Of a stretch of 64,000 nucleotides of DNA, positions 1 through 36,612 are shown piece after piece; positions within the stretch are counted from its first letter, which is position 1; each line of letters starts with the position of its first letter. The notes below the pieces were generated by a model, which saw only the letters and a list, made by a program, of their open reading frames with translations, was not told the origin of the DNA and did not search any database. Source of the DNA: a virus; the IMG/VR virus record IMGVR_UViG_3300036770_005816, positions 32,001-96,000 of that record, one strand, 5' to 3'. Position numbers and translations under genes: made by a program.

Positions 1-11
1 TAGCCAAAAAA

Positions 12-1801: not shown

Positions 1802-1859
1802 ACATAATCATGCTCATTTAGCGTGACCTGTAAATAAGGTACAATCAAATAGCCAGCCA

Positions 1860-3230
1860 GTGTGGCTTATCACGGCGAGGGTACGGATGCAAAACGGCTT
1901 AAATTCATCAATTGCGCAACTTCTCCGCAAACAGGTACGTCTTTCGCGCGGTCACAAAAGCATGCGCAGAACCGTGTTGCCGATAGAACGAGAATACAAC
2001 ATCAAATTTTCGGAAATTGAACAAACCAATTCGTTTGACGAATCCGACATCTATAACGCGCCATTGAACGGCGACAGAAACCTAATCAATTTCAAAACAA
2101 TGATGTACCTAAGGAAACTGGAGTCGCGACTCGCTTCACCCATTGACATACTCGCATACGACGAAAAGGTCGGGTTGGTCGGTTCAAGAACAGGGTTCGG
2201 CAGAACACTTCAAGCAGTCGGTTCCGCAATCACGCCGGGCAACATCAGCACGATACGAAGCCCTGTCCGTTCTGCTATTTGGCGGGCTTTGACACCGGGC
2301 GGTGGCGGAGGAAGAGGGCGAAAACTTCCCGGCGAGCGTGGATACAGGTGCCCTGCTGGTTTTGAATTCGGTGGTCGTTTTACCGACAGTGCATTTTCTA
2401 CATGTGGCGCTCAGTTGTTTGAGATACCAGGTCCGCTCGCGTTGGCTGCTCGCGCCATCCGCGGAGCGATGAACCCTCCGTCGGCAAGGCTTGAAAGCCT
2501 CTCGCAGGTGGTTCAAGGCAACGCGTCGCCTGATAGGGCTGTGCAAATTCAGCGAATGGCTCAGATTCCTCGCGACAACATACCCAATAAACAAAAGTTT
2601 GCACAATCAGTCGCATCATCAATAACAACATTGAAGGCGTCCCCACAGGGTGATGCCCGAATGATTCGCAGGGATGGAACAATTTTCCGACCAATCGTTC
2701 CTTCCTCAATCCTTAGACAATTCAGCGGAAACAAAGACATGATGGACGGCGCATTTGTCCGAGCGGTACAAGTGCCGAAAGATATCGCACCTGACGATGT
2801 CGCCCTGCTTGCCGGCGCATCAATGCAAAGAATTTCATTTGTTGCACCAAACGGTGTGGTAATTTCGATTGAGCGACCACGCGCACTGACGGTAGGTGAA
2901 CGACGGAAGTTCGGTCGCCAACTGAACAAAGTGATAGGTGAAACAGACCAATATGAAGTTGGTAAAAACATCAAAGATTTTGCCGAAAGAAGTAACGGTG
3001 CGTTCAAGTACACAGAAACATATGGCGATGTGAAAAACCCGAACGAGTTAGTGACAGTGATTGGCAAAGATGGCGTTGAACGACAGGTGCGTCGATGGAT
3101 TTACGAAACCTTCATAAAGGCTGGCGAAGAAGCACGGACACCCAAACAGCAGGGCGCGAAGCGACGCCAAGTGGCGGAGGCTGGACGAGAAGCGGCTGAG
3201 CGTCTAGCGGAAAGTTCATCAAGAAGATGA
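1860..3230 (+). CDS. Hypothetical head-associated protein with RCPxGxxxGGxxTD...CG module
   Basis: GYRCPAGFEFGGRFTDSAFSTCG resembles GWRCPVGTRYGGQITDRFGRNCG in the two giant ORFs downstream; start may be ATG 1887. Confidence 0.6.
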   Translation: MWLITARVRMQNGLNSSIAQLLRKQVRLSRGHKSMRRTVLPIEREYNIKFSEIEQTNSFDESDIYNAPLNGDRNLINFKTMMYLRKLESRLASPIDILAYDEKVGLVGSRTGFGRTLQAVGSAITPGNISTIRSPVRSAIWRALTPGGGGGRGRKLPGERGYRCPAGFEFGGRFTDSAFSTCGAQLFEIPGPLALAARAIRGAMNPPSARLESLSQVVQGNASPDRAVQIQRMAQIPRDNIPNKQKFAQSVASSITTLKASPQGDARMIRRDGTIFRPIVPSSILRQFSGNKDMMDGAFVRAVQVPKDIAPDDVALLAGASMQRISFVAPNGVVISIERPRALTVGERRKFGRQLNKVIGETDQYEVGKNIKDFAERSNGAFKYTETYGDVKNPNELVTVIGKDGVERQVRRWIYETFIKAGEEARTPKQQGAKRRQVAEAGREAAERLAESSSRR

Positions 3231-8086: not shown

Positions 8087-8091
8087 CGGTT

Positions 8092-8445
8092 ATGGCTGAT
8101 TTTGCAAAAATAGTTTTAGACAATGATTACTTCTATTCATTCAAAGATGAACCAGATACATGCATCGCCAAAAATGATAACGGGAACATAGAGTTGCGGG
8201 GCAATAACAAAAAAATTGTGGACTTTGTTTATGATGTTTTGTCTGAGTCTGCAGGCAAATCGACATATTCAAACTCGAAATATGGTTTAGAATATGTGTT
8301 GTCAAAATTGGTCGGTCCGTCAATTGACTACAGTTCCGATTTCTCATTTATTGAAGAGGATTATGAGGAACTTGCCGAAAAACTCAAAGTGACCAAATCT
8401 TTCAAAGTTATATCTACAAAGAAACAAATGAGCGATGACGAATAA
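8092..8445 (+). CDS. Small acidic protein, candidate immunity protein for upstream kinase
   Basis: 117 aa, starts 5 nt after kinase-protein stop and overlaps next gene. Confidence 0.5.
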   Translation: MADFAKIVLDNDYFYSFKDEPDTCIAKNDNGNIELRGNNKKIVDFVYDVLSESAGKSTYSNSKYGLEYVLSKLVGPSIDYSSDFSFIEEDYEELAEKLKVTKSFKVISTKKQMSDDE

Positions 8446-11400: not shown

Positions 11401-12238
11401 CCGCCGAAAGAAGTATCATCACTTCTTGTTTGCGCAGGCTCTCTCTGCTTCCGACATGGAAATACCCGAGGAACTCAGAGACAAACTTAAAGGGAAAAAG
11501 TTCGTTCGACTAAGGAGCGGAAGTGCGGCAGCACCTTGGTTGCATTTCCGTGTTTCGGATGACGGGAAACGCCTCACCGGTGAGGGTTTCGTTATCAAGC
11601 CACCAGATGGCTATAACGGCGACGAATCCAACATGTTTGAACTTATGGGCGCCGAATTGTCCGCAATGCTAGGAGCACCAGGCGAAGGTGGTCGTGTTGA
11701 CGGACTCAAAAACGGAAGTAGAACCATTGTTATTCCTTTCGGTGGAAACATGATTGAAGGGAAAATGGTTGTCGGCGTCTATAATCACAAAGGCAATAAA
11801 AAAGACAGACTATTGAATGTCTTGTCGAATTTTGTTCTCAATGTTGGCGACAGACATGGGTTTAATGGAATGGTGTTTAAAGATGAAAACGGGAACGATG
11901 TCGCATATCCGATTGATTTTGGTCGAGCAAGCCCTGGGCGAACTGTGACCGAGGACGGGTTGCGCAATTATTGGGAGACTTTCGATATGGATAGAAAAGC
12001 GGGAATGGGCGCGCGCGATATTGGAGCAGCGAACGAGTTGGGAAGAGAACTTCTTCCCAGACTTAAGGCTATTGATTTTGAAGAAATGGCACGACGATTT
12101 GGCGCAATGTATGGTGACAAACAGGCTCTAAGCGCTGCACAGGTTGCGGAGAGAATTGACCAAATCAGGAAACGGGTCAACGCCATTATTCGCATCCTTG
12201 AGACACGAGGGCTTGGCGATGTTCTGTTTCAGCGTTAA
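8435..12238 (+). CDS. Giant mosaic protein (1267 aa), paralog of 3227..8086, C-terminal HipA/PI3-PI4-kinase-like domain
   Basis: FVIKPP...NFVLNVGDRHGFN...AYPIDFG; shares YEVKRVRAxWDP...RCPVGTRYGGQITDRFGRNCGW and PDSRSFRNVNNRFPKNGLP modules with 3227..8086. Confidence 0.7.
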   Translation: MTNKNLINYKAQRFQSELNKTTFAYEVKRVRALWDPTLSIPGTGRRGGWRCPVGTRYGGQITDRFGRNCGWGVARRIANSITNIGERLESLDDRRRGRRVDRRNRRMAGRLQRNAEAGRAERRLRGVADVLDGGEGTDRVARPPRGREVVLDDVDAPETSPVVLDDGGRPLDGRAERREARKRRRQERRERRLREAQEREERGDPPAGQLGRGWRGVLSEGNRRYNEQGNRPWWGEGQPAPRPDADSVDVPSRPDRGDADAETPRPRRPRPEGERGRRRPRAERDEADIVEPTPETPDASEPTPEAPRPPRRPRAPRDGEERRPRPGERRPPRVPAADEEDEGLFDDFLRPGAPKRDGREPGEIVIGSDGEPYKWVPNPDANVIGAGKQEKGFWVPASEVDLENDRLRKKERRVKGDDLRNPKSPKGAPDPEGKNRIWTDDEGDQWEYDPNSRQWNIRGNPSKRREAEENDRARRDNRNERLRERNERGRRRAPRDEDERDRDLRFSERRRVRREIEEPGAPRTAPGETPEAEAPKPKRPARKRNRRRAASDEIATESATRRPPTPKDKPQGGQPKPSERINLDEEMIELAEGESMPDSRSFRNVNNRFPKNGLPKSAYWRKPDYDGNDKPELERRFGRYYDADGNINNRGRLVNQEIEKRKRGGGLTPKGRKPRQRKKPADAPKQPVENTPPNQADIPSPPSLAVTEEASTAFRELPDDAKTKARQLFRVLMRGRDRENEVQDDVVDNAIRRPPGDVNNQNLRALLAAQQQNIQRITKDKSDATANIERLKQDYGLDSPTGLRYDILPDDVKDRYVDNVAVVMRADKELASNQRRIARLQEEIIRRDIANPPVNQPQTPQAGQTPSPTPQSPQPQGRRKLADRFMFVKRRKNRDNVVAPLGDVDKNGVVVGKTVKVGENGMNTKDEAVKYLQDGGEIGNVPDEFLFDALEGVSHDGSQDWGDFVTEDVFNDLVTRGVINADGIDYDAFRRKKYHHFLFAQALSASDMEIPEELRDKLKGKKFVRLRSGSAAAPWLHFRVSDDGKRLTGEGFVIKPPDGYNGDESNMFELMGAELSAMLGAPGEGGRVDGLKNGSRTIVIPFGGNMIEGKMVVGVYNHKGNKKDRLLNVLSNFVLNVGDRHGFNGMVFKDENGNDVAYPIDFGRASPGRTVTEDGLRNYWETFDMDRKAGMGARDIGAANELGRELLPRLKAIDFEEMARRFGAMYGDKQALSAAQVAERIDQIRKRVNAIIRILETRGLGDVLFQR

Positions 12239-12265: not shown

Positions 12266-12562
12266 ATGAAAAAAACCATGTGGGTCGGTATGGTCGGGAT
12301 GGGGAACTCTGTTGTTGTGGGTTTCGACGGAGAAAAGGTGAGGTGCGCATCAACCTCGCCAGAGTTCGAAGAGTATGTTTTGAACAATGTCAATTCTGAA
12401 CGAGTTTCGGAATTGGCGCAAAAAGATAAAGATTTCAATTATCCGCTTTATGTTGGGACATCAACCATGATGTCCTTCGGGGAGGAAGTTCCTTGGGATG
12501 AAGAGGGTTTCAAAATGTTGTCAGAAATCGCTCGCGCCTTAAGGGAAAAACAGCAAAAGTGA
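12266..12562 (+). CDS. Small protein, candidate immunity protein for upstream kinase
   Basis: 98 aa directly after second kinase protein; GTGA overlap with next gene. Confidence 0.5.
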   Translation: MKKTMWVGMVGMGNSVVVGFDGEKVRCASTSPEFEEYVLNNVNSERVSELAQKDKDFNYPLYVGTSTMMSFGEEVPWDEEGFKMLSEIARALREKQQK

Positions 12563-13911
12563 CTACTTCGTTCGTTGTTCGCAAACGTGACGGTTCCCCG
12601 TATTTCGTCGCCACGACAGGTAAAGGGAAAACCACTTTCCGTGCTGTCTCTGCTGACGCCAAAGAACTTCTCTCCGCTTTCAAGGACGAATACTCCGATT
12701 CTGATATAACCAAACAAGAATTGGAAGTTGCCCTAGACAGAGGTATGACCGTCGAGGGTCCAATGCCCGAGTCGGCAGTTCCAAATGCGCTGGAGCGTGA
12801 AGTGAAGCCGAACGAAAAGGCTGCGAGGGTGGCATCTCGTGAGCAGGCTCTCACCGTAGCGAGACTTCTCGGTTGTCGAGGCGCCCATCAGCACGAAAAT
12901 GGTTCGTGGATGCCATGCACAACTCATGAAGAATTCGAGGCGTTGAAAAAAGGCAAGAACGACTACTACCAAGTTTCTTCGAAGAGCCGTATGCACGGTT
13001 TCACCGAGATTGAGCATCGAACGCAATTGGCGTTGACCAAATCAGGCGAGTATTACGAGGACAGGGCGATGGCTGAAGAAGCGTCGAAAAGACGCGGATG
13101 TAAGGGTGTGCGAGTCATAAAGATTGGTGGCGTCACCTACTACGCCCCTTGTGTTGCTACGGAAAGATTCGAGAAGTTGCGTGAGCGTCCGGTGGCGGGA
13201 ATTGAGACACTTCCTGACGGCGGTTTGGTATCAGCGAAAATGGACACAAAAGGATTTGTTCCTTTTGTCAGCAGGTCTACCGACCCAGACACATTCCCGA
13301 ATCCTGATTCGGCGCGTATCCGTGCAAGAAATCTTGGCTGTATCGGCATACGAAGGTATGTTGCTCGTGACGGGAAAACTGTTTGGATGCCGTGCTCCAA
13401 CGGCTCAGATTACAACCGAGTCATGAAACTGCGGAATGATGGAAGCCCGAAAAACAGGAGAGGCAATAAACCCAGTCGCGGTCGCAAGAGTTTGGTTGAT
13501 TCATCCTTTATTGAGGAAAAGGTTGTCAGAAAGCCGAAGCGAAAGAGTCCACAAATTGATAGCGAGACCGTGAACCGCCTCGCTGTTCTTGTTCGACGCC
13601 ACAATGCTGATGTATCCAAGCAGATACATCGAACCAATTTGAGGGACGCGAAGATTGTGTATCTACGCGGTCTTTCTTCTGGTGGCGAGGCGTCTGCGAA
13701 AAAACGTTTGTCGGATTTCTTTGAATCCATGAAGTCTGACAAGCCCACAAAGCGCGGAACCCGCAGGGATTTCGACTTGGTTCCCGACAATCATCCTTCC
13801 AAGAGCGGGAAGTCAGCAAAAAGGGACGACGCTTACGGTGACGGTGTTATGGGGGTTAAGTATTCGGGTGGGTGTTGCCCCAAGGTTGTGAAACGATATC
13901 ACCGACTGTAA
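12559..13911 (+). CDS. Head-associated protein with three GCxG...(W/Y)xPC repeats
   Basis: LGCRGAHQHENGSWMPC / RGCKGVRVIKIGGVTYYAPC / LGCIGIRRYVARDGKTVWMPC; N-terminal ~70 aa similar to N-terminus of 3227..8086. Confidence 0.6.
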   Translation: MTTSFVVRKRDGSPYFVATTGKGKTTFRAVSADAKELLSAFKDEYSDSDITKQELEVALDRGMTVEGPMPESAVPNALEREVKPNEKAARVASREQALTVARLLGCRGAHQHENGSWMPCTTHEEFEALKKGKNDYYQVSSKSRMHGFTEIEHRTQLALTKSGEYYEDRAMAEEASKRRGCKGVRVIKIGGVTYYAPCVATERFEKLRERPVAGIETLPDGGLVSAKMDTKGFVPFVSRSTDPDTFPNPDSARIRARNLGCIGIRRYVARDGKTVWMPCSNGSDYNRVMKLRNDGSPKNRRGNKPSRGRKSLVDSSFIEEKVVRKPKRKSPQIDSETVNRLAVLVRRHNADVSKQIHRTNLRDAKIVYLRGLSSGGEASAKKRLSDFFESMKSDKPTKRGTRRDFDLVPDNHPSKSGKSAKRDDAYGDGVMGVKYSGGCCPKVVKRYHRL

Positions 13912-14075: not shown

Positions 14076-15392
14076 ATGTCAGACGACATTCGTCTTCGCG
14101 AGTTGCAGAACGCACTTCGCGAAAAGATGGCTGACAACAAGACCATTGCCGACTCGTTCAAAGTCGAAGATGGCACTGTTGTTGTTTCAGCCGAACAAAA
14201 GTCAGCGTTCGACCGCAATATGTCGGACATCCGTGAAATCAAGAGCCTGATTGAGGGCATTGAGGGAATGCGCGATGCAGAGAAGTGGGCTTCGGCTCCT
14301 GCCTCTGAGTCGGTTGCGCAGGCTTCGAATGCACAGCCTCAGCAGGTCGAGCAGAGAATGAGCATCAAGAGCCTCGGCGAAGCGTTCCTTTCGTCCGATG
14401 AGTACAAGGCGCTCGCCTCTGGTCGAAACGGCGCGAACATGCCGGCTCCGTTCGTGTACAACGTGAAGGATGTCTTCACGGGTATGCCGACCGGTCCTGC
14501 TTCGCCGCTTTCCTCGGTTGAACAGTTCGGTCAGTTCCAGCGTGACCCGATGGTGGTCTCGCCGACCCGTACCCGTCGCGTCCGCGACCTCTTCCCGAAG
14601 CGCACCACGAACGCTGCGGTGATTGAGTACTTCCGCCAGATTGGTTACACCGCCGTCACTGGCGCGCCGACCAACAATGCGGCTCCTGTCTCTGAGCGCT
14701 CGGGTTCGCCCGCAGTGTTCACTGCGAAGCCACAGTCTGGTTTGAAGTTCACTGGTCATCAGGCACCGGTTCGCACGCTTGCCCACTGGGAAGCAGCGCA
14801 CCGCAATGTGCTCGCCGACGAGCCGCAACTCCGTAGCATCATCGACAACGAGTTGATGTACGGTCTGCGTCTTCTTGAGGACGAGCAAATCCTGAACGGT
14901 GACGGCACCGGCGAGAACCTCGAAGGTGTTCTCCAGACCACGGGCATCCAGACCTACGATTGGTCTTCTGGTGCGACGGGTGACCTCAAGGCGGACGCGA
15001 TTCGTCGCGCAGCCACCTTGTCGTTCCTCGCGTACTACGAGCCGACGGGCGTCGTGATGCACCCGAACGACTGGGAAGACATCGAACTGTCGAAGGACGA
15101 CAACGGACAGTACCTGGTTGCTGTCTCGGTCGCCCTCGGCGGAACCCCGCGTCTGTGGCGCATCCCGGTTGTGGACACGCCGGCAATCGCAGAAGGCACC
15201 GCTCTTGTCGGTGCGTTCGGCACTGCCGCGCAGATTTACGACCGTGAGCAGGCAAGCATCCGAATCAGCGAGCAGCACGCAGACTTCTTCGTGCGCAACG
15301 CGATTGTGGTGCTCGCCGAGCAGCGTCTCGCACTCGCTGTCAAGCGTCCTGAGGCATTCGTTGCCGTCTCGTTTGACAACGCTCCTGCCTGA
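14076..15392 (+). CDS. Major capsid protein, HK97 fold, with N-terminal scaffold/delta domain
   Basis: SIKSLGEAF processing-site pattern, LADEPQLRSIIDNELMYGL, EDEQILNGDGTG, VMHPNDW, FVRNAIVVLAEQRLALAVKRPEAF; strong RBS (AGGAGG), strongly biased codons. Confidence 0.93.
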   Translation: MSDDIRLRELQNALREKMADNKTIADSFKVEDGTVVVSAEQKSAFDRNMSDIREIKSLIEGIEGMRDAEKWASAPASESVAQASNAQPQQVEQRMSIKSLGEAFLSSDEYKALASGRNGANMPAPFVYNVKDVFTGMPTGPASPLSSVEQFGQFQRDPMVVSPTRTRRVRDLFPKRTTNAAVIEYFRQIGYTAVTGAPTNNAAPVSERSGSPAVFTAKPQSGLKFTGHQAPVRTLAHWEAAHRNVLADEPQLRSIIDNELMYGLRLLEDEQILNGDGTGENLEGVLQTTGIQTYDWSSGATGDLKADAIRRAATLSFLAYYEPTGVVMHPNDWEDIELSKDDNGQYLVAVSVALGGTPRLWRIPVVDTPAIAEGTALVGAFGTAAQIYDREQASIRISEQHADFFVRNAIVVLAEQRLALAVKRPEAFVAVSFDNAPA

Positions 15393-15492: not shown

Positions 15493-16356
15493 GTGATGGC
15501 TGACGAAAGCAAAAATCTGAAAGTAAAACTTCTTGGAATACCATTTAGTGGTTTTCTCCGCAGAGGGAAGCCCGGTATACCGAGAGATGGCGATGGTGAC
15601 GGAATGTTCACACCCGTCGGCTCTACTGAAGACAACATGCCGTATCCAGCAGTGGTAAACACGGTGGTTAATTTTCTCAGAAAAAAAACCCCTAGTTACA
15701 AGAAAGATTTGGCTCGCAGACGTAACCGCGTTAAGGAAATCATTGCAGACGCACGAAAAGGCGGATTCACTAGAGACAGAAATATTGAAGGGGATGTAAA
15801 AACAGGGATATCGGTAGGTCTCAACAGACACGGATTGAGCAGAGATGTTTCTGATGTTTGGGATAAAGATGGAAACCCGAAAGAAGAAGCAATTCAAACA
15901 GTTCTTGCATGGATGCAGTATCACGGTGACAAAGTATTCGGCAATCCGCTTCCGGGGGCGCGTGAGCGCGGGATTGGCGGATGGGTGCAAACCGTAGATG
16001 GCGTGCCGCGATTCTTCCTCGATGTCGTAGACATATATCCGACCACAGACGAAAATATTGCAAAAGCAGCGTCTCTTGGCAAAGCACAAAATCAGAAAGA
16101 AGTGGCAATTTTGGACAAGGTTTGGGAGGCTAAGGAAGCCGACGCACGGAAGGAGCCTTCAGATTGGAATGCTCCTTTCATAGACAGCGGTGGAGATGGT
16201 GCAGATGTCATTGATTGGGAGTTTTTCAATGACGCGCGCGGAGTTTTCGCTGAACCGAAACGAACGATATCTAGAATATTTAGACCGAATCAATCTGGCA
16301 AATCAGAAGATTTGTCATTCAGGTTTGTGATAACGGAGGATTCATCAAATGGCTGA
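15493..16356 (+). CDS. Hypothetical protein carrying VK(L/V)LG-P...DGDGDG tag
   Basis: VKLLGIPFSG...RDGDGDGMFTPVGSTEDNMPYPA, matches tags in 28723..31098 and 31095..33566. Confidence 0.65.
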   Translation: MMADESKNLKVKLLGIPFSGFLRRGKPGIPRDGDGDGMFTPVGSTEDNMPYPAVVNTVVNFLRKKTPSYKKDLARRRNRVKEIIADARKGGFTRDRNIEGDVKTGISVGLNRHGLSRDVSDVWDKDGNPKEEAIQTVLAWMQYHGDKVFGNPLPGARERGIGGWVQTVDGVPRFFLDVVDIYPTTDENIAKAASLGKAQNQKEVAILDKVWEAKEADARKEPSDWNAPFIDSGGDGADVIDWEFFNDARGVFAEPKRTISRIFRPNQSGKSEDLSFRFVITEDSSNG

Positions 16357-28282: not shown

Positions 28283-28726
28283 TCAAATGTCAACAGTATT
28301 CTGACGACCAGCCACAATTTGTTTTATTTGGTCGTAACCCAGCAACACCGTCGCATAGTTGACAACCAACCGACCATCGTCGTCAACAGATGACACAATT
28401 TCAACGCTTTCATTAGGGCATCCGAAAGCACTGGCAAGCGCCGACTGCATACGGGCGATACCGACCTCATCAACAATATCTTGGTCATAGAAATCCCATA
28501 ATTCTTCAGTGACAGGGGGCGGAACAACGGTTAGCGTCCGCAACTGCCTCCCCGTTTCGGAAGCGACGACACACCAAGTGCACGCAATCTGCTCCGTTCT
28601 CGCAGGGCGTTTTCGTATCTCCACATGTCCACATTCGAGTGTATGGTGATACTCCACCCCACCCCAACTTCCGACACGCTCAATATTTTTAACTGTTTTT
28701 TGTGGAGCGGATTTTTTATTAATCAC
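28283..28726 (-). CDS. Hypothetical protein with LECGH...CTWC zinc motif
   Basis: ORF overlapping upstream gene stop (GTGA). Confidence 0.6.
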   Translation of the reverse strand: MINKKSAPQKTVKNIERVGSWGGVEYHHTLECGHVEIRKRPARTEQIACTWCVVASETGRQLRTLTVVPPPVTEELWDFYDQDIVDEVGIARMQSALASAFGCPNESVEIVSSVDDDGRLVVNYATVLLGYDQIKQIVAGRQNTVDI

Positions 28727-31098
28727 TTTTTCCTGTTGCGGTAACTCGCAGCCCTCCGCTCAGCAATCGTAGTGTTCGCCACAAACTGTCGCCCCCTCTT
28801 GTCGCCCTCAATCTTTTTGCGGTTAGTCGCCGCTCTCTGCGCAGGCGTCAAACGACCCCACACCTTATCGGGCAGATACCTGCGCATTTTGCCTCCACGC
28901 AACGCTGGTTTGCCGTCAGAAGTACGCCACTTCTCACGCGTCCACTTCTTCAACGAGCGTTGCTTCTTGTTCGGCGACTTACCCTTCTTGTACCCACCGC
29001 CAGCCTTACGGTATCTGACGGCTACCAACTGTGCTTTACGAGCAGACCACTGCCCAGGTCTGCCACCTTCGCTTCCAGCCATCACCCGTGCCTTGATTCT
29101 TTCACGCAAAGCATTGTTCGTGTAAGGGGACTCACCCTTAATATCGACAGCATTCGATTGGACAAGATAGAACTCGGCAACCCTTTGGTTGTAAACAGAC
29201 ATATCATCTCCCGTCTTTCGCTTCAATTTCTTTGCGATTCTCTTTCCTCTTCTATAGACACGCCTAACCAAACTTGCTATCGCGTCAAGCAAAACTTTCG
29301 ATTCTTTGGTTTCATCCACAGAATATTGCTGATTTTTGTTTTCTTTCCTCGGTGTCGCACTAGCCAAACCAGAACACAACGAAATTTCAATTGCACCAGT
29401 TTTACTGAAAGACAAACCAGAGTGCTCATGAACATTGTCTCGTTTGGCTTCCTTCTTTTCAATCCACGACGACATTTTTCTCCAAGCATCAACAAGTTCT
29501 TCATGAGGTGGCGTCAAACCGATTTTATCTGCCGCTCGCTGTTCGGCAACCCATTCAGAAAAATTGACTCCGGCATACGGGGACGTGCGCACCATGCGCC
29601 TACCTCTGTCACCAAAAATCAAAGACATCATATTTCTATTAATATTGTCAAACCACAACGACCACTGATAACTATTCGGGTCTCTAATAACCCCCAAGAT
29701 ACTGTCGCGGTCACCGTTTTTGTTAACAAAAGCATTTCCATAAGCATCGTTGGAAATAAAGTGTGTAACCAACCTGTTCGCCGCCATAATCCACAAAATG
29801 TCATCAGGTATATTTTCGCGTCCATATTTGTCAAGCAAATCGCCGTTCAAAACATCCCTGATGCTCGGAACATTAAATGCCGGCATCGCCTCATCGGGCA
29901 ATTTTTTCATGGCTTCCTTGACGACACCTATGCCCTGAGCAATGAATTCCTCCATCTCTTTGATGTCCGCGTCGGTTATGTTGAAATTAGGATTTTTTGC
30001 ACCAACGGTTGCTTCCTTTTGCAGATTCTGCAAAATCAAAAGATTTCGTGCGACATCGGACTTGGTTTTGGGTTCGATAACAAATTTTTGGGATGTGAGC
30101 CAAGTGTAGTAATGTTCTGCGTGCACAAACTCGTGGTCGGCAACATACGCACCATAGAGATAGTCAAGTTGGTCGTCCGACATCCCTAACTGCTCCAATG
30201 GAAGCAGGAATTCCCTTTCAATTCCCCACAACCGTTTATTCATGTTGGAAATGTCCGCTCCGTCAACTGAAAGGTCTGGCGGGAAATCCAAATACGAATA
30301 CATCATTGGGCGCTGTTGGTCATCCTTGATGCTTTTTATGCCGTCGGAAATTATTCCCGCCACACCGTCGTATTTGACCGCCGCATTTCTGTCTCCTCGG
30401 CGAGAGATACCGCGAAGCAACGAGGCAACATCTGGGCGCTCCTCGCCCCTTCGGAGCAGGGTCAAAAATAAGCCCATATCCGCTGGTGTGGGAGGCTCAT
30501 TATCGAATGCTCTCGCGATTTCCCCATCTTCCAATGCGCGTTCAGAATCACCCAAATTTGGATAAACAGATTTGAGTGCTTTTACGGCGTTCTCGTTTTT
30601 GGTCAAATCGCCAAACTTGTTGGTGTACCGCTCATAGATTTCGGCGTGTGCCTTGAGTATGTTCTGTGCTGCTTTTAGCGAACGCTGTTGCTCATTGCTT
30701 GGTGTGCGGGATTCGAGTTTATTCACTGTTGCCGATTCGTCAGAGCGGAGGTTTCTGACCTTGTTGAAAACTTTTTTAAACAAGGAAACCAATTCGTCAA
30801 CAGGTGGCGTGTAGGGGATATTGTCCTCTCCGCCGGGACCAGTCCTGAACCCGTCGCCGTCACCATCGAAATCTGCGACACCACCGATAGGGGTACCGAG
30901 AACTTTTACAATAAACTCTCCGTGATGTTTGACTTCTGTTGATTGTTCAGCACCATTTTTGATTCTTTTCATTACTTTTTTCGGTTCTTCGTTTTCCACC
31001 AATGTGTAGTAGTAAAAATCAGCCTTCTGTTTCGGAGTCAAAACCTGTACGGCTTTAGCCAAGTCCCTAGATTCCTGTATTGACATAACTGAAATCAT
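28723..31098 (-). CDS. Tagged polyprotein: DGDGDG tag + zincin HExxH domain + C-terminal DUF5872-like basic domain
   Basis: VKVLGTPIGGVADFDGDGDG; ADHEFVHAEH...SPYAGVNFSEWVAE; GGRPGQWSARKAQL...QRSLKKWTREKWRT. Confidence 0.65.
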   Translation of the reverse strand: MISVMSIQESRDLAKAVQVLTPKQKADFYYYTLVENEEPKKVMKRIKNGAEQSTEVKHHGEFIVKVLGTPIGGVADFDGDGDGFRTGPGGEDNIPYTPPVDELVSLFKKVFNKVRNLRSDESATVNKLESRTPSNEQQRSLKAAQNILKAHAEIYERYTNKFGDLTKNENAVKALKSVYPNLGDSERALEDGEIARAFDNEPPTPADMGLFLTLLRRGEERPDVASLLRGISRRGDRNAAVKYDGVAGIISDGIKSIKDDQQRPMMYSYLDFPPDLSVDGADISNMNKRLWGIEREFLLPLEQLGMSDDQLDYLYGAYVADHEFVHAEHYYTWLTSQKFVIEPKTKSDVARNLLILQNLQKEATVGAKNPNFNITDADIKEMEEFIAQGIGVVKEAMKKLPDEAMPAFNVPSIRDVLNGDLLDKYGRENIPDDILWIMAANRLVTHFISNDAYGNAFVNKNGDRDSILGVIRDPNSYQWSLWFDNINRNMMSLIFGDRGRRMVRTSPYAGVNFSEWVAEQRAADKIGLTPPHEELVDAWRKMSSWIEKKEAKRDNVHEHSGLSFSKTGAIEISLCSGLASATPRKENKNQQYSVDETKESKVLLDAIASLVRRVYRRGKRIAKKLKRKTGDDMSVYNQRVAEFYLVQSNAVDIKGESPYTNNALRERIKARVMAGSEGGRPGQWSARKAQLVAVRYRKAGGGYKKGKSPNKKQRSLKKWTREKWRTSDGKPALRGGKMRRYLPDKVWGRLTPAQRAATNRKKIEGDKRGRQFVANTTIAERRAASYRNRKK

Positions 31099-33566
31099 TT
31101 GGACCTCTCCTGCACTGCCAGCATTGACCTATCGTAAACAACAACCACATTTGGTTCGGCATCACTATCTTCAGCAACTTCACTGACCCAACCATTGGAA
31201 ACAAGAACATTCAACCTAGTGCCCTTGACACCTCTCGCCGCCAAAGAACGGCTTATATCGTCATCACCATAAAAATTTGTTTCCCCACGCCCTATACGCG
31301 CGCGATGTTCGGCGACTGTTTTTTTCATTTCCTCGATAGACATCAATGCGTCTGGCGGAATTGCCACAACGAGCACTTCGCCACCGTCTTCGTAAAACCC
31401 TTGAGCATAAATATCGGCAGTTTCTCTATCTAGCGCAAAGTTAATGCCGTTGCCGTGCACCCCCATGCCCGCAAAATATTGACCGCTTCTGAAATCGTCA
31501 GCCATTTGTTTCGCTTTTATGACAGTTCCTTTCCCATCTTCACCCTCAACCATGGCTGTACTTAATCCTCTATATGCAATAATCCAACCTTCTTTACGGA
31601 GACGCTCTATCTCATCCGCAGAGACAACCTTTGGTGGTTTATCGAATCCCTGTTTTTCGGCAATCATTTCCAACTGAACATCCCGACCAACACCTTTTGG
31701 CACTTTCTCGAGCCTTTGTTTGTACTCTCTGCCTGCTTCAGACTTTTCGAATTCATCTTTGCTTTTACCAAATAGCGATGCCAAATCTTTAGTTAAGTCT
31801 CGTATTTGCCGCTTTAGTGGCGCAGGATATTTGTCGCCACCAGGACCGCTAACAAACCCGTCCCCGTCGCCGTCAATCTCAGACATACCGCCAATAGGCG
31901 TACCGAGAACCTTCACCGCCAAATTCTTTTTATCATTTTCTCCCGAATCAACCAAATCCCAGTACCCGAATTTCAACACGGCTGAAACACTCGGAACATC
32001 TATTCTTTCTCCATTCACGAGCAGATAGCCGACATCTTTGTCAACCTCAAACAATCTTGCTTCACCAGAAACGGCAATCAGTACACCAGACTCTCGCTTA
32101 TCGGATTTGCCTTGAAGGTCGCCCGGTTCAACAAATTTACCTTCTCTTGGCAAAATCTGAATAGGAACACCCAACTCAGCCAACCGTTTCTGAACATCTT
32201 TATTCGCGAACTTATAATTAAAAGGAACAGCGATATAGGCGATATCTTCAATCTTTACACCGCCAAATATCTGAGCCTCGAAGTATCGATTATTGTAAGA
32301 CGAATAGTCTGGCTTTTGGTCATTCACTGTCCCCGCCCAGCCACCCTGCACACCTATCCCCTTGGGGTCATTTAGTGGCGAAACACCCATAAATTGTCCT
32401 GCAATCGAATCACCGGCAGTCATCGTTGAACGCTCTTCCACACCGCGTTTCATAACCATTGTCAAACGACCATATGTTCCACCATTAACGCCAATCTGTT
32501 CAACACCATCCTCGAAAAAAAATCCGTACACCGGACGAGCAGATTTTTTGCTTCCAGCAACAGGGATTCCAAAAAGCATCTGTTCGGCAACTGCACGAAA
32601 CTCCATCTGCTTCCTTAATTTGTTTCGTTCTTGCGAATCCCTACGCTCTAGTTTCCACGCATCAATGAACGCATTCCGCCCATTATTTTCAAACAAATTT
32701 TTGTATTTCCCATCAGACAAAACCTTTTCCAGACCACCCTCAGATATGGCAATACCAATTCGGCGATTTTTGTTCTCTACAAGTTTTTTGGCAACTTCAT
32801 CTGCGTCGGGGACTGCGCCATCGCGTTTCACATCAGCCATGAACTGAATAATTTTCCCGCTCTTCTCCAGCCCCATAAGGCTGTGACCCAACCATCTGCC
32901 AATCGGGTTTGGATAATGCGCGGGAGAATTTTCGTATTTTTTGTACTCCAACATCGTTTTGTAAAACGGATGTGTTTCTTTCACGCCGTTTTGTTTAAGC
33001 GCTTCAATTACATGATTAACGTAATCATCGCTCCATTTTTTCACTTTCGCGTGGCGCGCCATTACCGGAACGCCGTTATCCCTGACGAACTTCAACAAAT
33101 CTTGAGATTCTTTAGAGTTTGCATCGTCACCAAGGTTTTTCAGTAATTCTTCAAAATACTTTTTGCCATCCGGGTCGTCTCTGTTCCCAATTACGCTGTG
33201 TGCACCGTCGAACAGTGCCACAATGACACTGTGTGCGTTGGGATTGTCTCCGTATTTATTCAGCCACGCGACGGCTATCGGTGCTAACCGTTTCTCAAAA
33301 TCAATCGCATCGTCCATTTGTTTGCGCAATTCGGGAGTCCACCCGTCCCTCAGTAAAGGCGCCCAAGGTCGGTTCTTTTTGTTTGCTTCAGCAAAATTGC
33401 TGGCAGGAACAAGGATTTCGTTAAGCCCATCAACAGCCTTTTTTATCGGCGCGGGGTACTTGTCACCGCCCGGACCGCTAACAAACCCGTCCCCATCACC
33501 ATCGACCTCGGACATCCCACCAATAGGGGTTCCAAGAACTTTTACATAAAGACCAGACACCCCCAT
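31095..33566 (-). CDS. Tagged polyprotein with two DGDGDG tags and two putative ADP-ribosyltransferase-fold domains (DUF3626-like and YRG..GxGxxF type)
   Basis: Tag at N-terminus and again internally; RPVYG...YG...STMTAGDS...YFEAQIFGGV; AYRGLS...GMGVHGNGINFA. Confidence 0.6.
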   Translation of the reverse strand: MGVSGLYVKVLGTPIGGMSEVDGDGDGFVSGPGGDKYPAPIKKAVDGLNEILVPASNFAEANKKNRPWAPLLRDGWTPELRKQMDDAIDFEKRLAPIAVAWLNKYGDNPNAHSVIVALFDGAHSVIGNRDDPDGKKYFEELLKNLGDDANSKESQDLLKFVRDNGVPVMARHAKVKKWSDDYVNHVIEALKQNGVKETHPFYKTMLEYKKYENSPAHYPNPIGRWLGHSLMGLEKSGKIIQFMADVKRDGAVPDADEVAKKLVENKNRRIGIAISEGGLEKVLSDGKYKNLFENNGRNAFIDAWKLERRDSQERNKLRKQMEFRAVAEQMLFGIPVAGSKKSARPVYGFFFEDGVEQIGVNGGTYGRLTMVMKRGVEERSTMTAGDSIAGQFMGVSPLNDPKGIGVQGGWAGTVNDQKPDYSSYNNRYFEAQIFGGVKIEDIAYIAVPFNYKFANKDVQKRLAELGVPIQILPREGKFVEPGDLQGKSDKRESGVLIAVSGEARLFEVDKDVGYLLVNGERIDVPSVSAVLKFGYWDLVDSGENDKKNLAVKVLGTPIGGMSEIDGDGDGFVSGPGGDKYPAPLKRQIRDLTKDLASLFGKSKDEFEKSEAGREYKQRLEKVPKGVGRDVQLEMIAEKQGFDKPPKVVSADEIERLRKEGWIIAYRGLSTAMVEGEDGKGTVIKAKQMADDFRSGQYFAGMGVHGNGINFALDRETADIYAQGFYEDGGEVLVVAIPPDALMSIEEMKKTVAEHRARIGRGETNFYGDDDISRSLAARGVKGTRLNVLVSNGWVSEVAEDSDAEPNVVVVYDRSMLAVQERSK

Positions 33567-33852: not shown

Positions 33853-34369
33853 ACGCCAAAGGTAGCAAAAACACTCCACCAACCCACATACAGCCGATAG
33901 CACAATAACCAACCACATCCAAAAGATTGTCAGCCAACGACTCATTCTGCGGAGACGCATCCCGCGCCAACAAATTCTCCAAACGCGCCACCTTGTCATG
34001 CAAACGAACAAACAACCCGCGCTCACCAAACCTACGAATATTCTCATGCCCGTAATCCGTCTGCTTACGAACCAGCGTCTTCGTCACCACATCAGCATCC
34101 AACTCATACCCAAGAACCGACGCCAACATCACACCAGCACGACCGATATCACGCCACGAAGCCAACCGAGCCTCCCCGCTACGCGACTGCTCCTCAAAAT
34201 CGAGACCGATAGCAGCATCCAAAAACGCGCGCAAATCCCCAACCGACCGCACCATCAATTTGTCACTGCTCAAACCACCAAAAATACGGTCAACCGCAAC
34301 CACAGCCGCATCATTCCACGAAACCCCAACCCGACCAGAACCCCAAAAAATGTGATTTTCCATACCCAC
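33836..34369 (-). CDS. DUF1599 / nucleotide-modification-associated domain protein
   Basis: KQTDYG...VRLHDKVARLENL...ESLADNLLDVVGY. Confidence 0.75.
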   Translation of the reverse strand: MGMENHIFWGSGRVGVSWNDAAVVAVDRIFGGLSSDKLMVRSVGDLRAFLDAAIGLDFEEQSRSGEARLASWRDIGRAGVMLASVLGYELDADVVTKTLVRKQTDYGHENIRRFGERGLFVRLHDKVARLENLLARDASPQNESLADNLLDVVGYCAIGCMWVGGVFLLPLAYAEAS

Positions 34370-34386
34370 ACAATAGACTCAAAACA

Positions 34387-34746
34387 GTGAACAACATACG
34401 CACCCAATACACCCGCCGAAGCAACGCCTACGTCATCCTCTGCTACGCCCGCATGATGGCACACTGGAAAGGGCGGGAATGGTTTACAGACAAGGACTAT
34501 CACACCTTCCAAGCAGGACGCATACAAACCAAACGAATCCGAGAAACCCTCAAACGGCTCGTCCAACAAAACTTCCTCACCAAAGACAACACCAACCCCA
34601 AAACACCCCGCTACCACATAACCGAAAAAGGAATCGGCGCAATCTACGACGTAGAACGCAGATACCCATCACAAGAAATCAACAAAGACATCTACCGACC
34701 CGTCCCCAAACAACAAAAACCCAAAGCCCCAGCCGTCATTAAATAA
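34387..34746 (+). CDS. Winged-helix-like protein
   Basis: LKRLVQQNFL...RYHITEKG wing motif. Confidence 0.55.
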   Translation: MNNIRTQYTRRSNAYVILCYARMMAHWKGREWFTDKDYHTFQAGRIQTKRIRETLKRLVQQNFLTKDNTNPKTPRYHITEKGIGAIYDVERRYPSQEINKDIYRPVPKQQKPKAPAVIK

Positions 34747-34753
34747 AACAAAC

Positions 34754-35296
34754 ATGCCCATCTCAGAAATAATGACACTCACCGCCAAAGAACTCATCCA
34801 CGTCGTCACCTGGGTCAAACAAGCACAAGCCAACAAACGCAACCACAAAGTAAACGACCAAATCTACGCAAAAACCCTCGGCTCAGAAGGCATCGCACTC
34901 ATGGGCAAATGCGGAGAAGTCATCGCCGCCCGCTACTACGGCGTCCAACCCGACTGGAACATCTACATCGGCGCAGACAACGGCAACGACCTCCACATCC
35001 ACAACAAAAAAACCGAAATCAAAACCTCAACCCAACGCAACCTCATCATCAACGACCCCGCCCACAACAAATACGGCATCTGGAAACCCGACACCGAAAT
35101 CTGCATCCTCGTCCACTGCAACCGACCCCCCAAAACCGCCATAACCATCAGCACCACCACACAATTCCAAATAATCGGCGCAATCAACCGCCACGAATTC
35201 TTCCAAATCGCCCAAAAACGCAACTACGGCTACGGACCCCGCCTAGTAGCCACAGAACAACAACTCCACGGCAACGAAATCTTCCAAATCAAATAA
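34754..35296 (+). CDS. Hypothetical protein, possible PD-(D/E)xK nuclease
   Basis: GKCGE...DNGND...TEIKT pattern. Confidence 0.45.
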   Translation: MPISEIMTLTAKELIHVVTWVKQAQANKRNHKVNDQIYAKTLGSEGIALMGKCGEVIAARYYGVQPDWNIYIGADNGNDLHIHNKKTEIKTSTQRNLIINDPAHNKYGIWKPDTEICILVHCNRPPKTAITISTTTQFQIIGAINRHEFFQIAQKRNYGYGPRLVATEQQLHGNEIFQIK

Positions 35297-35319
35297 CCCA
35301 AAACAACTAACATCAAACC

Positions 35320-36054
35320 GTGCAAACCAACACAATCACGGTCAACGACGCCACCCAAACACTCCAACAACTCCCCGACAACAGCATCCACACCGTCATC
35401 ACCTCACCCCCCTACAACAAAAAAGGCATAAACGGCGGCAAAACACAAAACAGCAACCAAATCTGGCAAAAACACAACATCAACTACAACCAATACCACG
35501 ACAACATGCCAGAACACCAATACCAACAATGGCTAATAGAAATAATCAACCAACTCCACCGCATCATCACACCAGACGGCTCAATCTTCCTCAACCACAA
35601 ACCCCGACGCCACAACAACCAAGCCCACCTCCCAACCGAAATAATCCACAAAACCAACGCCAACATCTACCAACTCATCATCTGGAACCGCCACAACTCC
35701 CCCAACATCCGAAACGACCACCTCCTCCCCAACACCGAACACATCTACTGGCTCACCAAAAACAAACCACGCACATACCGCAACCAACTACACCCCAAAT
35801 ACATCACCGAAATCTGGGACATCCCCCCACAAAAACAAAACCAACACCCCGCACCATTCCCACCACAACTCGTCGAAAACTGCATCCTCCTCACCACACA
35901 ACCCGGAGACATCATCCTCGACCCATTCAACGGAATCGGAACAACCACCACCACCGCACACAAACTCCAACGCCAATACATCGGCTACGACATAGACCCC
36001 CACTACACACAAATCGCACAACAAGCCATCACAGTCCCCGCTCTCACAAAATAA
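35320..36054 (+). CDS. DNA methyltransferase, N4-C/N6-A beta class
   Basis: VITSPPYN, HPAPFP, LDPFNGIGTT, YIGYDI. Confidence 0.9.
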   Translation: MQTNTITVNDATQTLQQLPDNSIHTVITSPPYNKKGINGGKTQNSNQIWQKHNINYNQYHDNMPEHQYQQWLIEIINQLHRIITPDGSIFLNHKPRRHNNQAHLPTEIIHKTNANIYQLIIWNRHNSPNIRNDHLLPNTEHIYWLTKNKPRTYRNQLHPKYITEIWDIPPQKQNQHPAPFPPQLVENCILLTTQPGDIILDPFNGIGTTTTTAHKLQRQYIGYDIDPHYTQIAQQAITVPALTK

Positions 36055-36152
36055 ACAGAACACACCCGACCAAAAAATTGGCGCACACCCGCCCCCGGTG
36101 CTGTCGAGGCGCCCCTAGGTTGTAGTCCCGCTTATTTGGCTTTTTTGTGTGT

Positions 36153-36265
36153 GAACATGTGTTCGTGTGTGTTTGTTGTGTGTGATTGGGGGCGAACATG
36201 TGTTTGTGGGGGCGAACATGTGTTTTTGTGTGTGAACATGTGTTCGTGTTTGCGAACATGTGTTT
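36153..36265. repeat. Five copies of GAACATGTGTT(C/T), 20-bp phased (LexA-box-like / iteron-like)
   Basis: Copies start at 36153, 36194, 36214, 36234, 36254. Confidence 0.85.
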
Positions 36266-36612
36266 GTTTGTGGTTTGTGGTTTGACTTTCGTTTCGTCGT
36301 GTTGTAAAGTGTTGTGCGATTATCCGTTTTGTTTATTTTGATGAAAGTGAGAGTGTGAGTGTGGCTAAGTACAGGTATCGGAATCGTTATGACATCGCAC
36401 CGTGTTATGAAGAGCGTGGTAAGTGGTGGGTTGTTGATACTGAGAGTCGTTATGCGAAGGTGAAGTTGTGTGGGTCTCGTGCTGAGGCGTTGCGTGAGTC
36501 GTATCGTCTTGACCGTGTGTTGGCGTGAAGTTTCGCAAGGCTCACGGGTGATTTACGGGTGATTTGTGATGTGTATTCGTATGATGAAACTAGGTGAGAG
36601 ACACATGAAAGG

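Follow-up and report, generated by a model that had tools for sequence, protein, structure and literature searches.

A portable peptide tag precedes diverse cargo modules in a phage lineage and may mark them for head loading

Tagged genes and tag copies in the window

The window (a stretch of 64,000 nucleotides, positions 32,001 to 96,000 of the IMG/VR record IMGVR_UViG_3300036770_005816) contains three genes, P0001, P0002 and P0003, in which copies of a single peptide tag, here called T1, stand before otherwise different modules. Two of the genes are adjacent on the minus strand, the start of P0002 overlapping the stop of P0001, and the third follows the gene for the major capsid protein. The features are, by position:

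12559..13911 (+), P0007, DUF3721-repeat protein, encoded immediately before the capsid gene; untagged
14076..15392 (+), HK97-type major capsid protein; scaffold (delta-like) domain at its N-terminus
14364-14378 (+), predicted capsid maturation site K98/S99 in I-K-S-L-G, from alignment with HK97 gp5
15493..16356 (+), P0003, 287 aa, tag and conserved domain of unnamed fold, directly after the major capsid gene
15523..15657 (+), T1 copy 4, looser, spacer sub-type, P0003 residues 11-55 (HMM 53 bits)
28723..31098 (-), P0002, 791 aa, leader, tag, HExxH module and basic C-terminal region
28738-29127 (-), P0002 basic C-terminal region, DUF5872-like (phrog_17747, phrog_14910)
30121-30135 (-), P0002 HEFVH at residue 322; relatives keep HE[WF]xH
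30802..30909 (-), T1 copy 3, P0002 residues 64-99, behind a 63-aa leader (HMM 65.5 bits)
31095..33566 (-), P0001, 823 aa, tag, DUF3626-like module, tag, ART-like module
31098-31808 (-), P0001 ART-like module, residues 587-823; fold-search matches weak, mostly of ART fold
31818..31916 (-), T1 copy 2, P0001 residues 551-583, between both cargo modules (HMM 58 bits)
31956-32780 (-), P0001 DUF3626-like core, residues 263-537, by BLASTP to a DUF3626 module
33447..33545 (-), T1 copy 1, P0001 residues 8-40, at the N-terminus (HMM 59 bits)

An earlier note on this DNA had reported four copies of the tag in these genes, and their number and places were confirmed to within a few bases. The 133-kb genome holds exactly four, scoring 53-66 bits against a tag HMM with the runner-up stretch at 4.0 bits, and in a six-frame regular-expression scan of all 133,214 bp both DGDGDG and K[VIL]LG[TI]P occurred four times, coinciding at four sites. 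The consensus has two parts, hK-hLGxPIGG and DGDGDGFxTGPxGxDNxPxP, separated by a spacer of 0-15 aa; the halves of copy 4 are separated by a 7-aa insert, a sub-type conserved in nine members of the family. The DxDxDG pattern is invariant in the aligned tags, which on inspection have no signal-peptide-like hydrophobic stretch. No Pfam family matches the motif, and a literature search for the core DGDGDG found nothing relevant among the papers listed. In both AF2 models that include it (the ART-like part of P0001, and P0003) the tag has a pLDDT below 50 beside confidently folded cargo, such that T1 is apparently unstructured as modelled.

Copies 1 and 2 are identical at 79 of 99 nucleotides over 33 codons, with a longest identical run of 23 nt, and at 32 of the 33 residues. 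Nei-Gojobori counts give 19 synonymous changes and one non-synonymous change (pS 0.77, saturated; pN 0.013), as claimed previously for the closest copies, and the flanks of the two copies are unrelated to each other. With 80% identity in DNA against 97% in protein, and with synonymous change saturated, the T1 motif is real and under strong purifying selection at the level of the peptide. The edges of the tag are clearly where modules have been exchanged among genes and lineages, as would also be seen if the repeat acted on the DNA as a recombination linker with a functionless peptide. This reading is largely refuted by the ratio of synonymous to non-synonymous change and is very improbable; the protein motif, moreover, is kept across 24 aligned tags and the flanks are not.

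Modules behind the tags

The first module of P0001 scores 17.8-19.1 bits (E 7e-4) against DUF3626 (PF12294), below the cut-off of 27, and is homologous (BLASTP 1e-25) to a module of L030:3514-6111, which passes that cut-off with 47.2 bits; by this transitive evidence it is a divergent DUF3626 relative. The second module was modelled by AF2 with a pLDDT of 82, and in Foldseek ranks 1-50 were all PARP catalytic domains or PE-like toxins (best E 1.4e-3, TM ~0.3). The best VIA match was a chain of the cyanophage A4 pre-ejectosome (Z 7.1, rmsd 5.8, 138 aligned), followed by the catalytic domain of a Streptomyces insecticidal protein, cholix toxin and diphtheria toxin (each Z 6.3) and by further diphtheria-toxin and PE-like relatives (Z 5.4-6.1), all of these at Z <8. 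Y-R-G is invariant in the family alignment of 23 sequences, while an invariant glutamate, as in an R-S-E or H-Y-E catalytic motif, is not evident in it. Sequence searches with the ART-like part gave nothing below E 0.4 in the PDB and no Pfam match, with ART-PolyVal reaching a sub-threshold E of 0.051 for P0017.

The module of P0002 clusters with 12 other tag-preceded modules and is a candidate zincin metallopeptidase by its HExxH motif. No peptidase family was matched in Pfam, a PDB sequence search gave nothing below E 0.4, and residues 100-600 returned no usable match in the ESM Atlas. For P0003, the model is confident in its core (pLDDT 84-95) and places the first half of the tag in a short strand (E9-14) with low confidence; against PDB representatives the best Z was 3.6, and the fold therefore cannot be named. 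The BFVD matches of P0003 are phage XkdF/Zeta-toxin polyproteins.

The genes P0001 and P0002 are not part of the head module but belong to a minus-strand block with a WhiB gene, a primase-helicase gene and an RNase E-like gene, a placement that could indicate early expression. No Phage_Mu_F domain was found in P0001-P0003 or in 57 representatives of the tagged proteins; in this genome it forms residues 641-729 of the portal protein.

Distribution and exchange of tags and cargo

A profile search of 1.84 billion proteins recovered 70 T1 representatives, six of them FG-GAP or EF-hand false positives, and all 20 IMG/VR loci with T1 belong to one phage lineage, with one to three tags in each of five related records. 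A word-index protein search with the 45-aa tag returned only an ortholog (P0004) and a fragment (P0005), such that the profile search was needed, and tblastn of T1 against 50,697 phage records gave no match at E <=1 under a low-complexity filter that may mask DGDGDG. Among 185,579 prokaryote species genomes there were no true copies; the sole hit from 388 pattern matches, DGDGDGM in a 473-aa ORF of Hydrogenophaga, lacks the first half of the tag and was discarded as a false positive. T1 is confined to phage contigs, and the constant, mostly non-phage setting that had been named as evidence against a loading signal was not what was found. DSL-LC01 is, per its listing, metagenome-assembled.

Of 66 tagged proteins, 42 have their first tag beginning within 30 residues of the N-terminus, 27 of these within 12 residues. 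Elsewhere the tag marks a boundary between modules or follows a DUF3721 or leader region, DUF3721 being N-terminal of T1 in 9 of 57 representatives. Twelve of the 66 proteins possess two or three tags, each preceding a module, and in none of the 66 does a tag form the C-terminal end.

The cargo is diverse. The 72 modules that follow T1 form at least 19 BLASTP clusters and include ADP-ribosyltransferases (ARTs), HExxH proteins, DUF3626, GNAT and HTH domains; Pfam annotated DRAT (2), Arr-ms (1), ADPrib_exo_Tox (1), DUF6321 (4) and HTH (2) among the 57 representatives and nothing in 36 of them. The four post-tag modules of the window fall into four different clusters, in agreement with the claim that each tag precedes a different domain. 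In other phage lineages the same cargo modules stand behind two unrelated tags, KASFGGDRSxAGRYAAxxRW (T2) or KHxxHDQxSHGNWA (T3), and the portability proposed for the tag is supported on both counts. The search for homologues of the ART-like module found 33, and among the 22 that were aligned six have T1, nine SFGGDRSxAGRYAA and six HDQxSHGNWA, with one (P0207) beginning past the tag position. The alignment of the DUF3626 module of P0001 with L030:3514-6111 runs from just past the tag to a common ...GYW(D/E) end, and ~10-13 residues further on each protein has the tag of its own lineage. Judged from these alignments, tag type and cargo are both interchangeable, which fits an address or a processing signal; one cargo set carrying different short tags in different phage lineages is the new element of this analysis.

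T2 tags are found at module junctions in 32 of 144 ORFs, and the position two before the lysine is hydrophobic in all 114 T2 tags; T1, T2 and T3 have a single feature in common, a lysine that follows hydrophobic residues. A complete phage of 61,480 bp has 13 T2 tags within one 17-kb block. The gene order of the T2 and T3 phages is portal, Phage_Mu_F (here a separate gene), tagged effectors, S78_2 protease, scaffold and capsid. In a T2 phage the S78_2 protease carries a Zeta toxin and two T2 tags of its own in the same fusion protein. One M90 metallopeptidase match was found in a T2 polyprotein; a likeness between its M90-like modules and P0002 was considered and dropped (BLASTP E 5.2). The capsid profile A3 had no match in five T2/T3 records, all of which are fragments.

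In the T1 lineage, tagged genes flank the capsid gene in four of six annotated loci and lie 6-11 kb away from it in the other two (L004 and L006). The tag HMM found no tag in P0007 or in the 840-aa protease of this genome, while homologues of P0007 in relatives have T1 tags and cargo on their C-terminal side. Complex predictions that paired the tag (alignment of 24 rows) with the capsid protein (48 rows) scored 0.00 in both runs, which is evidence neither way.

Proposed head loading with processing, and the competing readings

The best reading of these data, and on balance a somewhat probable one, is that T1 is a portable tag for head loading coupled to protease processing. As a signal specific to the lineage, a group of actinobacterial myoviruses of ~100-140 kb, T1 would mark effector modules for uptake into the prohead, putatively by binding one of the head components. 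The prohead protease, of HK97 type (S78), would probably cut the tag at its first residues, after the lysine, between h-K and h-L-G. The cut would take a short leader off a single-module protein and would separate a multi-module protein into individual effectors, presumed to be present in the virion and carried with the DNA into the next host. As a leading explanation this reading draws on the head-module location of tagged genes in relatives, on cargo types known from injected effectors (ARTs, some of them Alt-like, as well as GNAT and Zeta toxin match known packaged effectors), on the predicted disorder of the tag and on the analogy with phages T4 and P1. The earlier note had proposed a capsid-loading signal; portability and the location in relatives bear on its side, and the loading itself we infer. 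The placement of P0001 and P0002 away from the head module counts against head loading, as do the tagged genes 6-11 kb from the capsid gene in L004 and L006 and the lack of a tag in P0007 and the protease.

The start of T1, h-K-[VISA]-[LI]-G, resembles the predicted protease site of the capsid protein in four residues. HK97 is cleaved at K103/S104 (PMC10275583), and in the alignment with HK97 gp5 the capsid residues K98-S99-L100-G101 fall on HK97 K103-S104-L-G. The pattern K[STVIA][LIV]G is rare, with 14 occurrences in the 39,455 aa of the ORF set, three of which are tags. By this likeness T1 may also, or instead, be a processing junction. A broader claim, that every tag mimics the maturation site of its own capsid, is not supported for T2: the capsid protein of the complete T2 phage (316 aa, with no N-terminal scaffold domain) has no T2-like stretch. 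In its exclusive form, in which the S78 prohead protease or the HExxH modules would split polyvalent precursors at T1 and head entry would be set otherwise, or the products would act in the producing cell, the junction reading is unlikely. It would account for the tags at module junctions in the multi-tag T1 proteins and T2 ORFs, for the shared lysine after hydrophobic residues and for the tagged T2 protease, and the available part of PMC5512222 proposes that peptidase domains process polyvalent proteins. A few residues suffice for cleavage, however, yet 30-45 are conserved, and the second half, DGDGDGFxTGPxGxDN, has no obvious role in it. A cut at the 27 tags that start within 12 residues of the N-terminus would free almost nothing, and the HExxH module is absent from most tagged proteins.

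A destination in or beyond the host cell is improbable. Here T1 would direct effectors to a common host target, such as a docking hub, or through an export route to the exterior, in line with a 'Trojan horse' role. P0001 and P0002 are placed among replication-type genes, and outside the cytoplasm a DxDxDG loop would be best placed to bind calcium. Further, ARTs of freshwater phages are interpreted as toxins against grazers in the part of PMC6802176 available. The tag nevertheless changes with phage lineage while the cargo stays constant, for which a phage-encoded receptor is the better fit, tagged genes lie within the head modules of relatives and of T2 and T3 phages, and the lack of a hydrophobic stretch in T1 speaks against export.

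There is similarly little chance that T1 serves as a calcium-binding linker with a structural role, or as an anchor by which accessory domains are attached to the outer face of the capsid, as decoration proteins are. The invariant DxDxDG, the FG-GAP calcium-loop repeats among the profile false positives, the low-confidence strand in the P0003 model and the position of P0003 next to the capsid gene on its downstream side, where decoration proteins are commonly encoded, would all be in keeping with it. The D-G-D-G-D-G core is the same as in the calcium loops of EF-hand-like, FG-GAP and thrombospondin type 3 repeats, but the flanking consensus differs, and it is the DxDxDG pattern that makes the T1 loop a candidate calcium site. 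Pfam EF-hand_1 reached E 0.16 for one of six tags, and no EF-hand or other calcium-binding family passed threshold. The NAD-dependent ART, GNAT, Zeta toxin and HTH cargos have intracellular substrates, which does not suit an external anchor, and up to 13 T2-tagged modules per genome is far above known decoration systems.

Head loading with processing can be set beside several described systems. T4 Alt, the T4 capsid targeting sequence (CTS), the N-terminal signal of P1 DarB and polyvalent proteins have all been described (PMC5512222, PMC9024508). According to the parts of these papers available, the T4 and P1 signals are, like T1, short N-terminal peptides on unrelated cargos, including an ART, in myoviruses, the T4 sequence is coupled to prohead protease cleavage, and the P1 capsid protein, as here, may have a scaffold domain of its own at the N-terminus (PMC9024508). 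T1 shares their N-terminal location, with 42 of 66 within 30 residues. The T4 signal, however, is ~10 residues long and is removed, whereas T1 has 36-45, in a strict consensus of two parts that includes a DxDxDG loop, and a cut after the lysine would leave most of T1 on the cargo, which counts against head loading with processing. The P1 Dar N-termini have no common consensus as the available text of PMC9024508 reads. T1 also differs from both in being repeated inside polyproteins and in having a function deduced from sequence.

Polyvalent proteins of phages and conjugative elements combine ARTs, metallopeptidases, acetyltransferases and similar domains; their genes lie close to those for packaging, and they are expected to enter the head, to be processed and to be injected (Iyer et al. 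2017, PMC5512222, in the portion available). P0001, P0002 and their relatives have a similar make-up, with two modules in P0001 and up to three in relatives; at least two effector-type domains and a packaging context are thus found, though P0001 and P0002 themselves lie outside the head module. Conversely, PolyVal Pfam families are sub-threshold here, many T1 proteins have a single module, and a conserved short peptide before each module goes unmentioned in the available portion of PMC5512222. MuF polymorphic toxins likewise carry variable toxic or enzymatic domains on a constant part that brings them to the head, in the same post-portal neighbourhood (PMC5512222 and PMC5576092, both in part), but the effectors described here are not fused to MuF, and what stays constant in them is a short peptide, apparently without structure, that would act in trans.

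Encapsulins, by their cargo-loading peptides, and HK97, by the C-terminal targeting region of its protease, also use short peptides to bring unrelated cargo to the inner side of an HK97-fold shell. Those peptides are C-terminal and unrelated in sequence to T1, for which binding to the capsid is putative.

Packaged and injected phage proteins are hard to predict from sequence and are usually unknown for uncultured phages. If the tags are loading signals, they would offer a sequence handle on the injected effectors of abundant freshwater actinobacterial phages, would recast phage ARTs from 'Trojan horse' grazer toxins to host-takeover or anti-defence enzymes delivered with the DNA, and would supply a natural modular tag with which foreign proteins could be loaded into phage heads. 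The swapping of tags on constant cargo is a natural experiment that makes the idea directly testable. A wider proposal, quite possible though less likely than loading by T1 itself, is that tailed phages of several lineages use families of short 'zip-code' peptides, each peculiar to its lineage (T1, T2, T3 and probably others), that load exchangeable effectors in trans into the prohead and mark the protease cuts. If true, phage heads would have a general code for cargo loading, akin to the loading peptides of encapsulins, and the effectors that a phage injects could be read from its sequence, as in the 61-kb phage that would devote a 17-kb, 13-tag block to them.

Copies and spread of the T1 tag

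The 64-kb window covers bases 32,001-96,000 of a phage genome assembled as a single contig of 133,214 bp. This genome carries four copies of the two-part peptide T1, all of them at the positions reported in an earlier note and the only ones present, with 53–66 bits against 4.0 for the next stretch (tag HMM, six-frame translation). They are distributed over three proteins, the first two of which overlap by four bases (ATGA) on the minus strand and are read together:

31095-33566 (-): P0001, two tags and two modules
28723-31098 (-): P0002, a tag and an HExxH module
15493-16356 (+): P0003, encoded after the capsid gene

The tag consists of a first part, h-K-h-L-G-x-P-I-G-G, a spacer of 0 to ~15 residues and a second part, D-G-D-G-D-G-F-x-T-G-P-x-G-x-D-N-x-P-x-P. 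No Pfam family covers it, and a literature search on the core motif returned nothing relevant. The two copies within P0001 share 32/33 residues but only 79/99 bases and, as had been claimed, differ mostly at synonymous positions (19 synonymous, 1 non-synonymous; pS 0.77, pN 0.013), with the likeness ending sharply at both flanks. Selection therefore acts on the peptide, and it is very unlikely that the repeat works only as DNA. Either the pair was homogenised and its silent sites drifted afterwards, or a common partner constrains both copies to one peptide. Both copies have an unusual ending, G-G-D-K-Y-P-A-P; in P0004, a 91%-identical ortholog of P0001, the second tag has the family-typical K-D-N-I-P ending instead.

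When a profile built from the four tags was run against 1.84 billion cluster representatives (E up to 1e-3), it matched 70 proteins, six of which were rejected as FG-GAP or EF-hand type false positives; one further match, P0044, is doubtful. Among the 66 proteins with tags at ≥18 bits, which include the three window proteins, a duplicate of P0003, and P0044, there was one tag in 54, two in 11 and three in 1, and the first tag began at most 30 residues from the predicted N-terminus in 42/66, some of the other starts possibly being miscalled. The IMG/VR scan returned 20 loci, with the tag confirmed by HMM in every one. Among prokaryotes, scanned as one genome per species (185,579 species), the pattern matched 388 times, and only one match was a tblastn relative; based on these scans, the tag is specific to one phage lineage. 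The lone prokaryote relative, a 473-aa ORF sharing the DGDGDGM stretch only, was set aside. All six annotated T1 loci match the window in capsid type, class II ribonucleotide reductase and nuclease, and each of five whole related records carries 1–3 tags.

Head module and cargo

The phage is tailed and its tail contractile (locus L022 carries the sheath, tube and baseplate genes), and the presence of WhiB genes points to an actinobacterial host. The capsid protein had >2,500 relatives at E <1e-30 among 8,000 candidates scored, so relatives of the phage are numerous in public metagenomes; the 120 capsid relatives listed are 70–98% identical and mostly from metagenome contigs of up to ~130 kb. 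The head module comprises the following genes (G000:C1 is the whole contig):

Large terminase: head gene
Portal: 734 aa, C-terminal Phage_Mu_F domain at residues 641-729
G000:C1:26676-29198 (L023:7676-10198): protease protein, 840 aa, Peptidase_S78 prohead protease at residues 30-176, then DUF6321
Window 3-12238 and G000:C1:29247-32000: very large ORFs of 832, 456, 1619, 117 and 1267 aa in the ~15 kb protease-to-capsid interval
Window 12559-13911: P0007, DUF3721-repeat protein
Major capsid protein: HK97-type, N-terminal coiled-coil scaffold part

Neither Pfam nor PHROG matched the very large ORFs, whose position makes them candidate internal head or ejection proteins. In P0007, three DUF3721-like repeats containing Cys/His are followed by a basic C-terminal half, at the end of which is a CC-containing motif that P0019 also has; in relatives, its homologue forms the N-terminal part to which T1 tags and ADP-ribosyltransferases (ARTs) are attached. 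DUF6321, which follows the S78 domain here, is another portable head-module domain. It lies at the end of four T1-tagged proteins and, both in relatives and in a phage with the T2 tag (see below), is also encoded by small separate genes close to the capsid gene. Elsewhere in the window, 34000-36100 (+) has an extreme strand composition (GC skew -0.50, AT skew +0.51 over 34001-36000). Its + strand ORFs contain very little G or T, and the one at 35320-36054 has an SPPY motif of the kind typical for N6/N4 DNA methyltransferases; the composition could reflect recent acquisition or the avoidance of some sequence. An intergenic tandem repeat (36187-36267; 20-base unit, 4.1 copies, 85% matches) adjoins this region.

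The capsid gene is bordered by tagged genes in four of the six annotated T1 loci: the DUF3721 gene just upstream of it has tags and cargo, and members of the P0003 family follow immediately downstream. In the window, L004 and L006, tagged genes are instead near a WhiB/primase block. A structural or decoration anchor is an improbable role for the tag.

The cargo is diverse. Single-linkage BLASTP clustering sorted the 72 post-tag modules of at least 80 residues into 19 clusters, a minimum for the domain count because linkage merges multi-domain modules, and the proposal of a different domain behind each tag was borne out, the four window modules belonging to four different clusters. The P0002 module (cluster of 13) may be a peptidase, a reading supported by its motif alone. 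The first P0001 module (cluster of 7) is below the Pfam threshold for DUF3626 but matches a module passing the cut-off (BLASTP 1e-25), and by this similarity is classed as a divergent DUF3626 relative. The second P0001 module (cluster of 4; AF2 pLDDT 82) likely has an ART fold, albeit with middling fold-search scores: every Foldseek match listed is a PARP catalytic domain or PE-like toxin (best E 1.4e-3), and in VIA the best match is a cyanophage A4 pre-ejectosome chain (Z 7.1), followed mainly by ART-fold toxins, e.g., cholix and diphtheria toxin (Z 5–6.3). The P0003 module (cluster of 6) had no match in the PDB (best Z 3.6) and resembles predicted structures of phage XkdF-protease/Zeta-toxin polyproteins and small actinophage proteins (E 1.6e-7 to 9e-4). 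Among 57 representatives, Pfam identified DRAT (2), Arr-ms (1), ADPrib_exo_Tox (1), DUF6321 (4) and HTH (2), with DUF5872 (2) and DUF3626 (1) below their own cut-offs; DUF3721 repeats are N-terminal of the tag in nine, and 36 have no Pfam match.

Exchange of tags on shared cargo

The key new result is that homologous cargo bears different tags in different phages. Of 33 homologues of the ART-like module, 22 were aligned, with T1 on six, T2 (K-A-S-F-G-G-D-R-S-x-A-G-R-Y-A-A-x-x-R-W) on nine and T3 (K-H-x-x-H-D-Q-x-S-H-G-N-W-A) on six; the remaining one begins past the tag position. The alignment of P0001's DUF3626 module with a T2-bearing protein runs from directly behind the tag to a common ...GYW(D/E) end, and ~10–13 residues further each protein has its own lineage's tag and then its next module. 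Tag type therefore goes with the phage lineage while cargo is shared, as expected for an address read by a phage-encoded receptor.

T2 is common. In IMG/VR it had 138 tblastn relatives, and the 44 loci kept (including L028, L030, L039 and L074) hold 191 tags, with two to four in 32 of 144 tagged ORFs; neither the T1 tag nor the capsid type of the window occurs in any of these T2 loci. In one complete phage genome of 61,480 bp with terminal repeats, all 13 T2 tags lie within a 17-kb block (G011:C1:23776-41245). Gene order in T2/T3 phages is portal, separate Phage_Mu_F protein, tagged effector genes, scaffold and capsid protein. Among the tagged genes are GNAT, DUF3626, an M90-like metallopeptidase, ADPrib_exo_Tox with an Alt-like match, and an S78_2 protease that precedes two T2 tags and a Zeta toxin. 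On locus L032, T3 occurs three times after portal and MuF (8124, 9617, 10252), once before an ART-like module and otherwise in neighbouring ORFs, two in number, of which one has an ADPrib_exo_Tox domain. In Actinomycetia phage DSL-LC01 (OQ999401; L001:11347-12747), a DUF3626-like homologue annotated as 'cytoplasmic protein' directly follows the portal gene. Close to the N-terminus of this homologue is another short basic motif, R-D-R-K-G-R-F-A, which may be a fourth tag type.

Possible function and known systems

The earlier note read the tag as a capsid-loading or sorting signal with a Ca-binding DxDxDG loop, and a head-loading tag coupled to processing is, somewhat on the side of probable, the best available interpretation. 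Tag pLDDT is <50 beside well-folded cargo in both AF2 models, as would be expected of a linear motif for docking or cleavage. In the alignment with HK97 gp5, I-K-S-L-G of the capsid protein (residues 97-101; K98 and G101 invariant in eight aligned sequences) falls column for column on the stretch holding the known maturation cut K103/S104, and T1 starts with h-K-[VISA]-[LI]-G, exactly K-S-L-G in many relatives. The pattern K[STVIA][LIV]G is rare in this genome, with 14 occurrences in 39,455 residues (ORF set without the capsid gene and P0003), three of them tags, and a lysine behind hydrophobic residues is the sole feature common to T1, T2 and T3. From the likeness to the capsid site and the common lysine, it is proposed that the S78 protease cuts after the lysine of the tag; inside the prohead, such a cut would remove leaders and split multi-tag proteins into their modules. 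Docking, perhaps with calcium, would fall to the second half of the tag, which contains the DxDxDG loop. Weak points of the proposal are that the likeness to the capsid site spans four residues, that the capsid protein of the T2 phage has no scaffold domain and no T2-like stretch, and that, unlike in T4, the cut would leave most of the tag on the cargo. A processing junction and nothing else is a rather unlikely alternative.

T4 internal proteins and P1 DarB are known to have N-terminal capsid targeting sequences, and T4 Alt is a packaged ART (PMC9024508, PMC5512222); the second of these reports also provides the concept of modular head-delivered effectors, from polyvalent proteins and MuF fusions. 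P1 DarA-Hdf pairs are described as bound to the inner capsid surface (PMC12810830). Compared with these T4/P1 signals, polyvalent proteins and MuF fusions, the consensus here is long, strictly conserved and recognisable, the tag is repeated at every module start, and at least three interchangeable tag families serve one shared cargo pool. Unlike MuF fusions, the tag appears to act in trans, without fusion to MuF. Freshwater phage ARTs were earlier read as toxins against eukaryotic grazers (PMC6802176), whereas the tag context suggests delivery of ARTs into the bacterial host; a host-directed signal is an improbable role for the tag itself, whose type follows the phage lineage.
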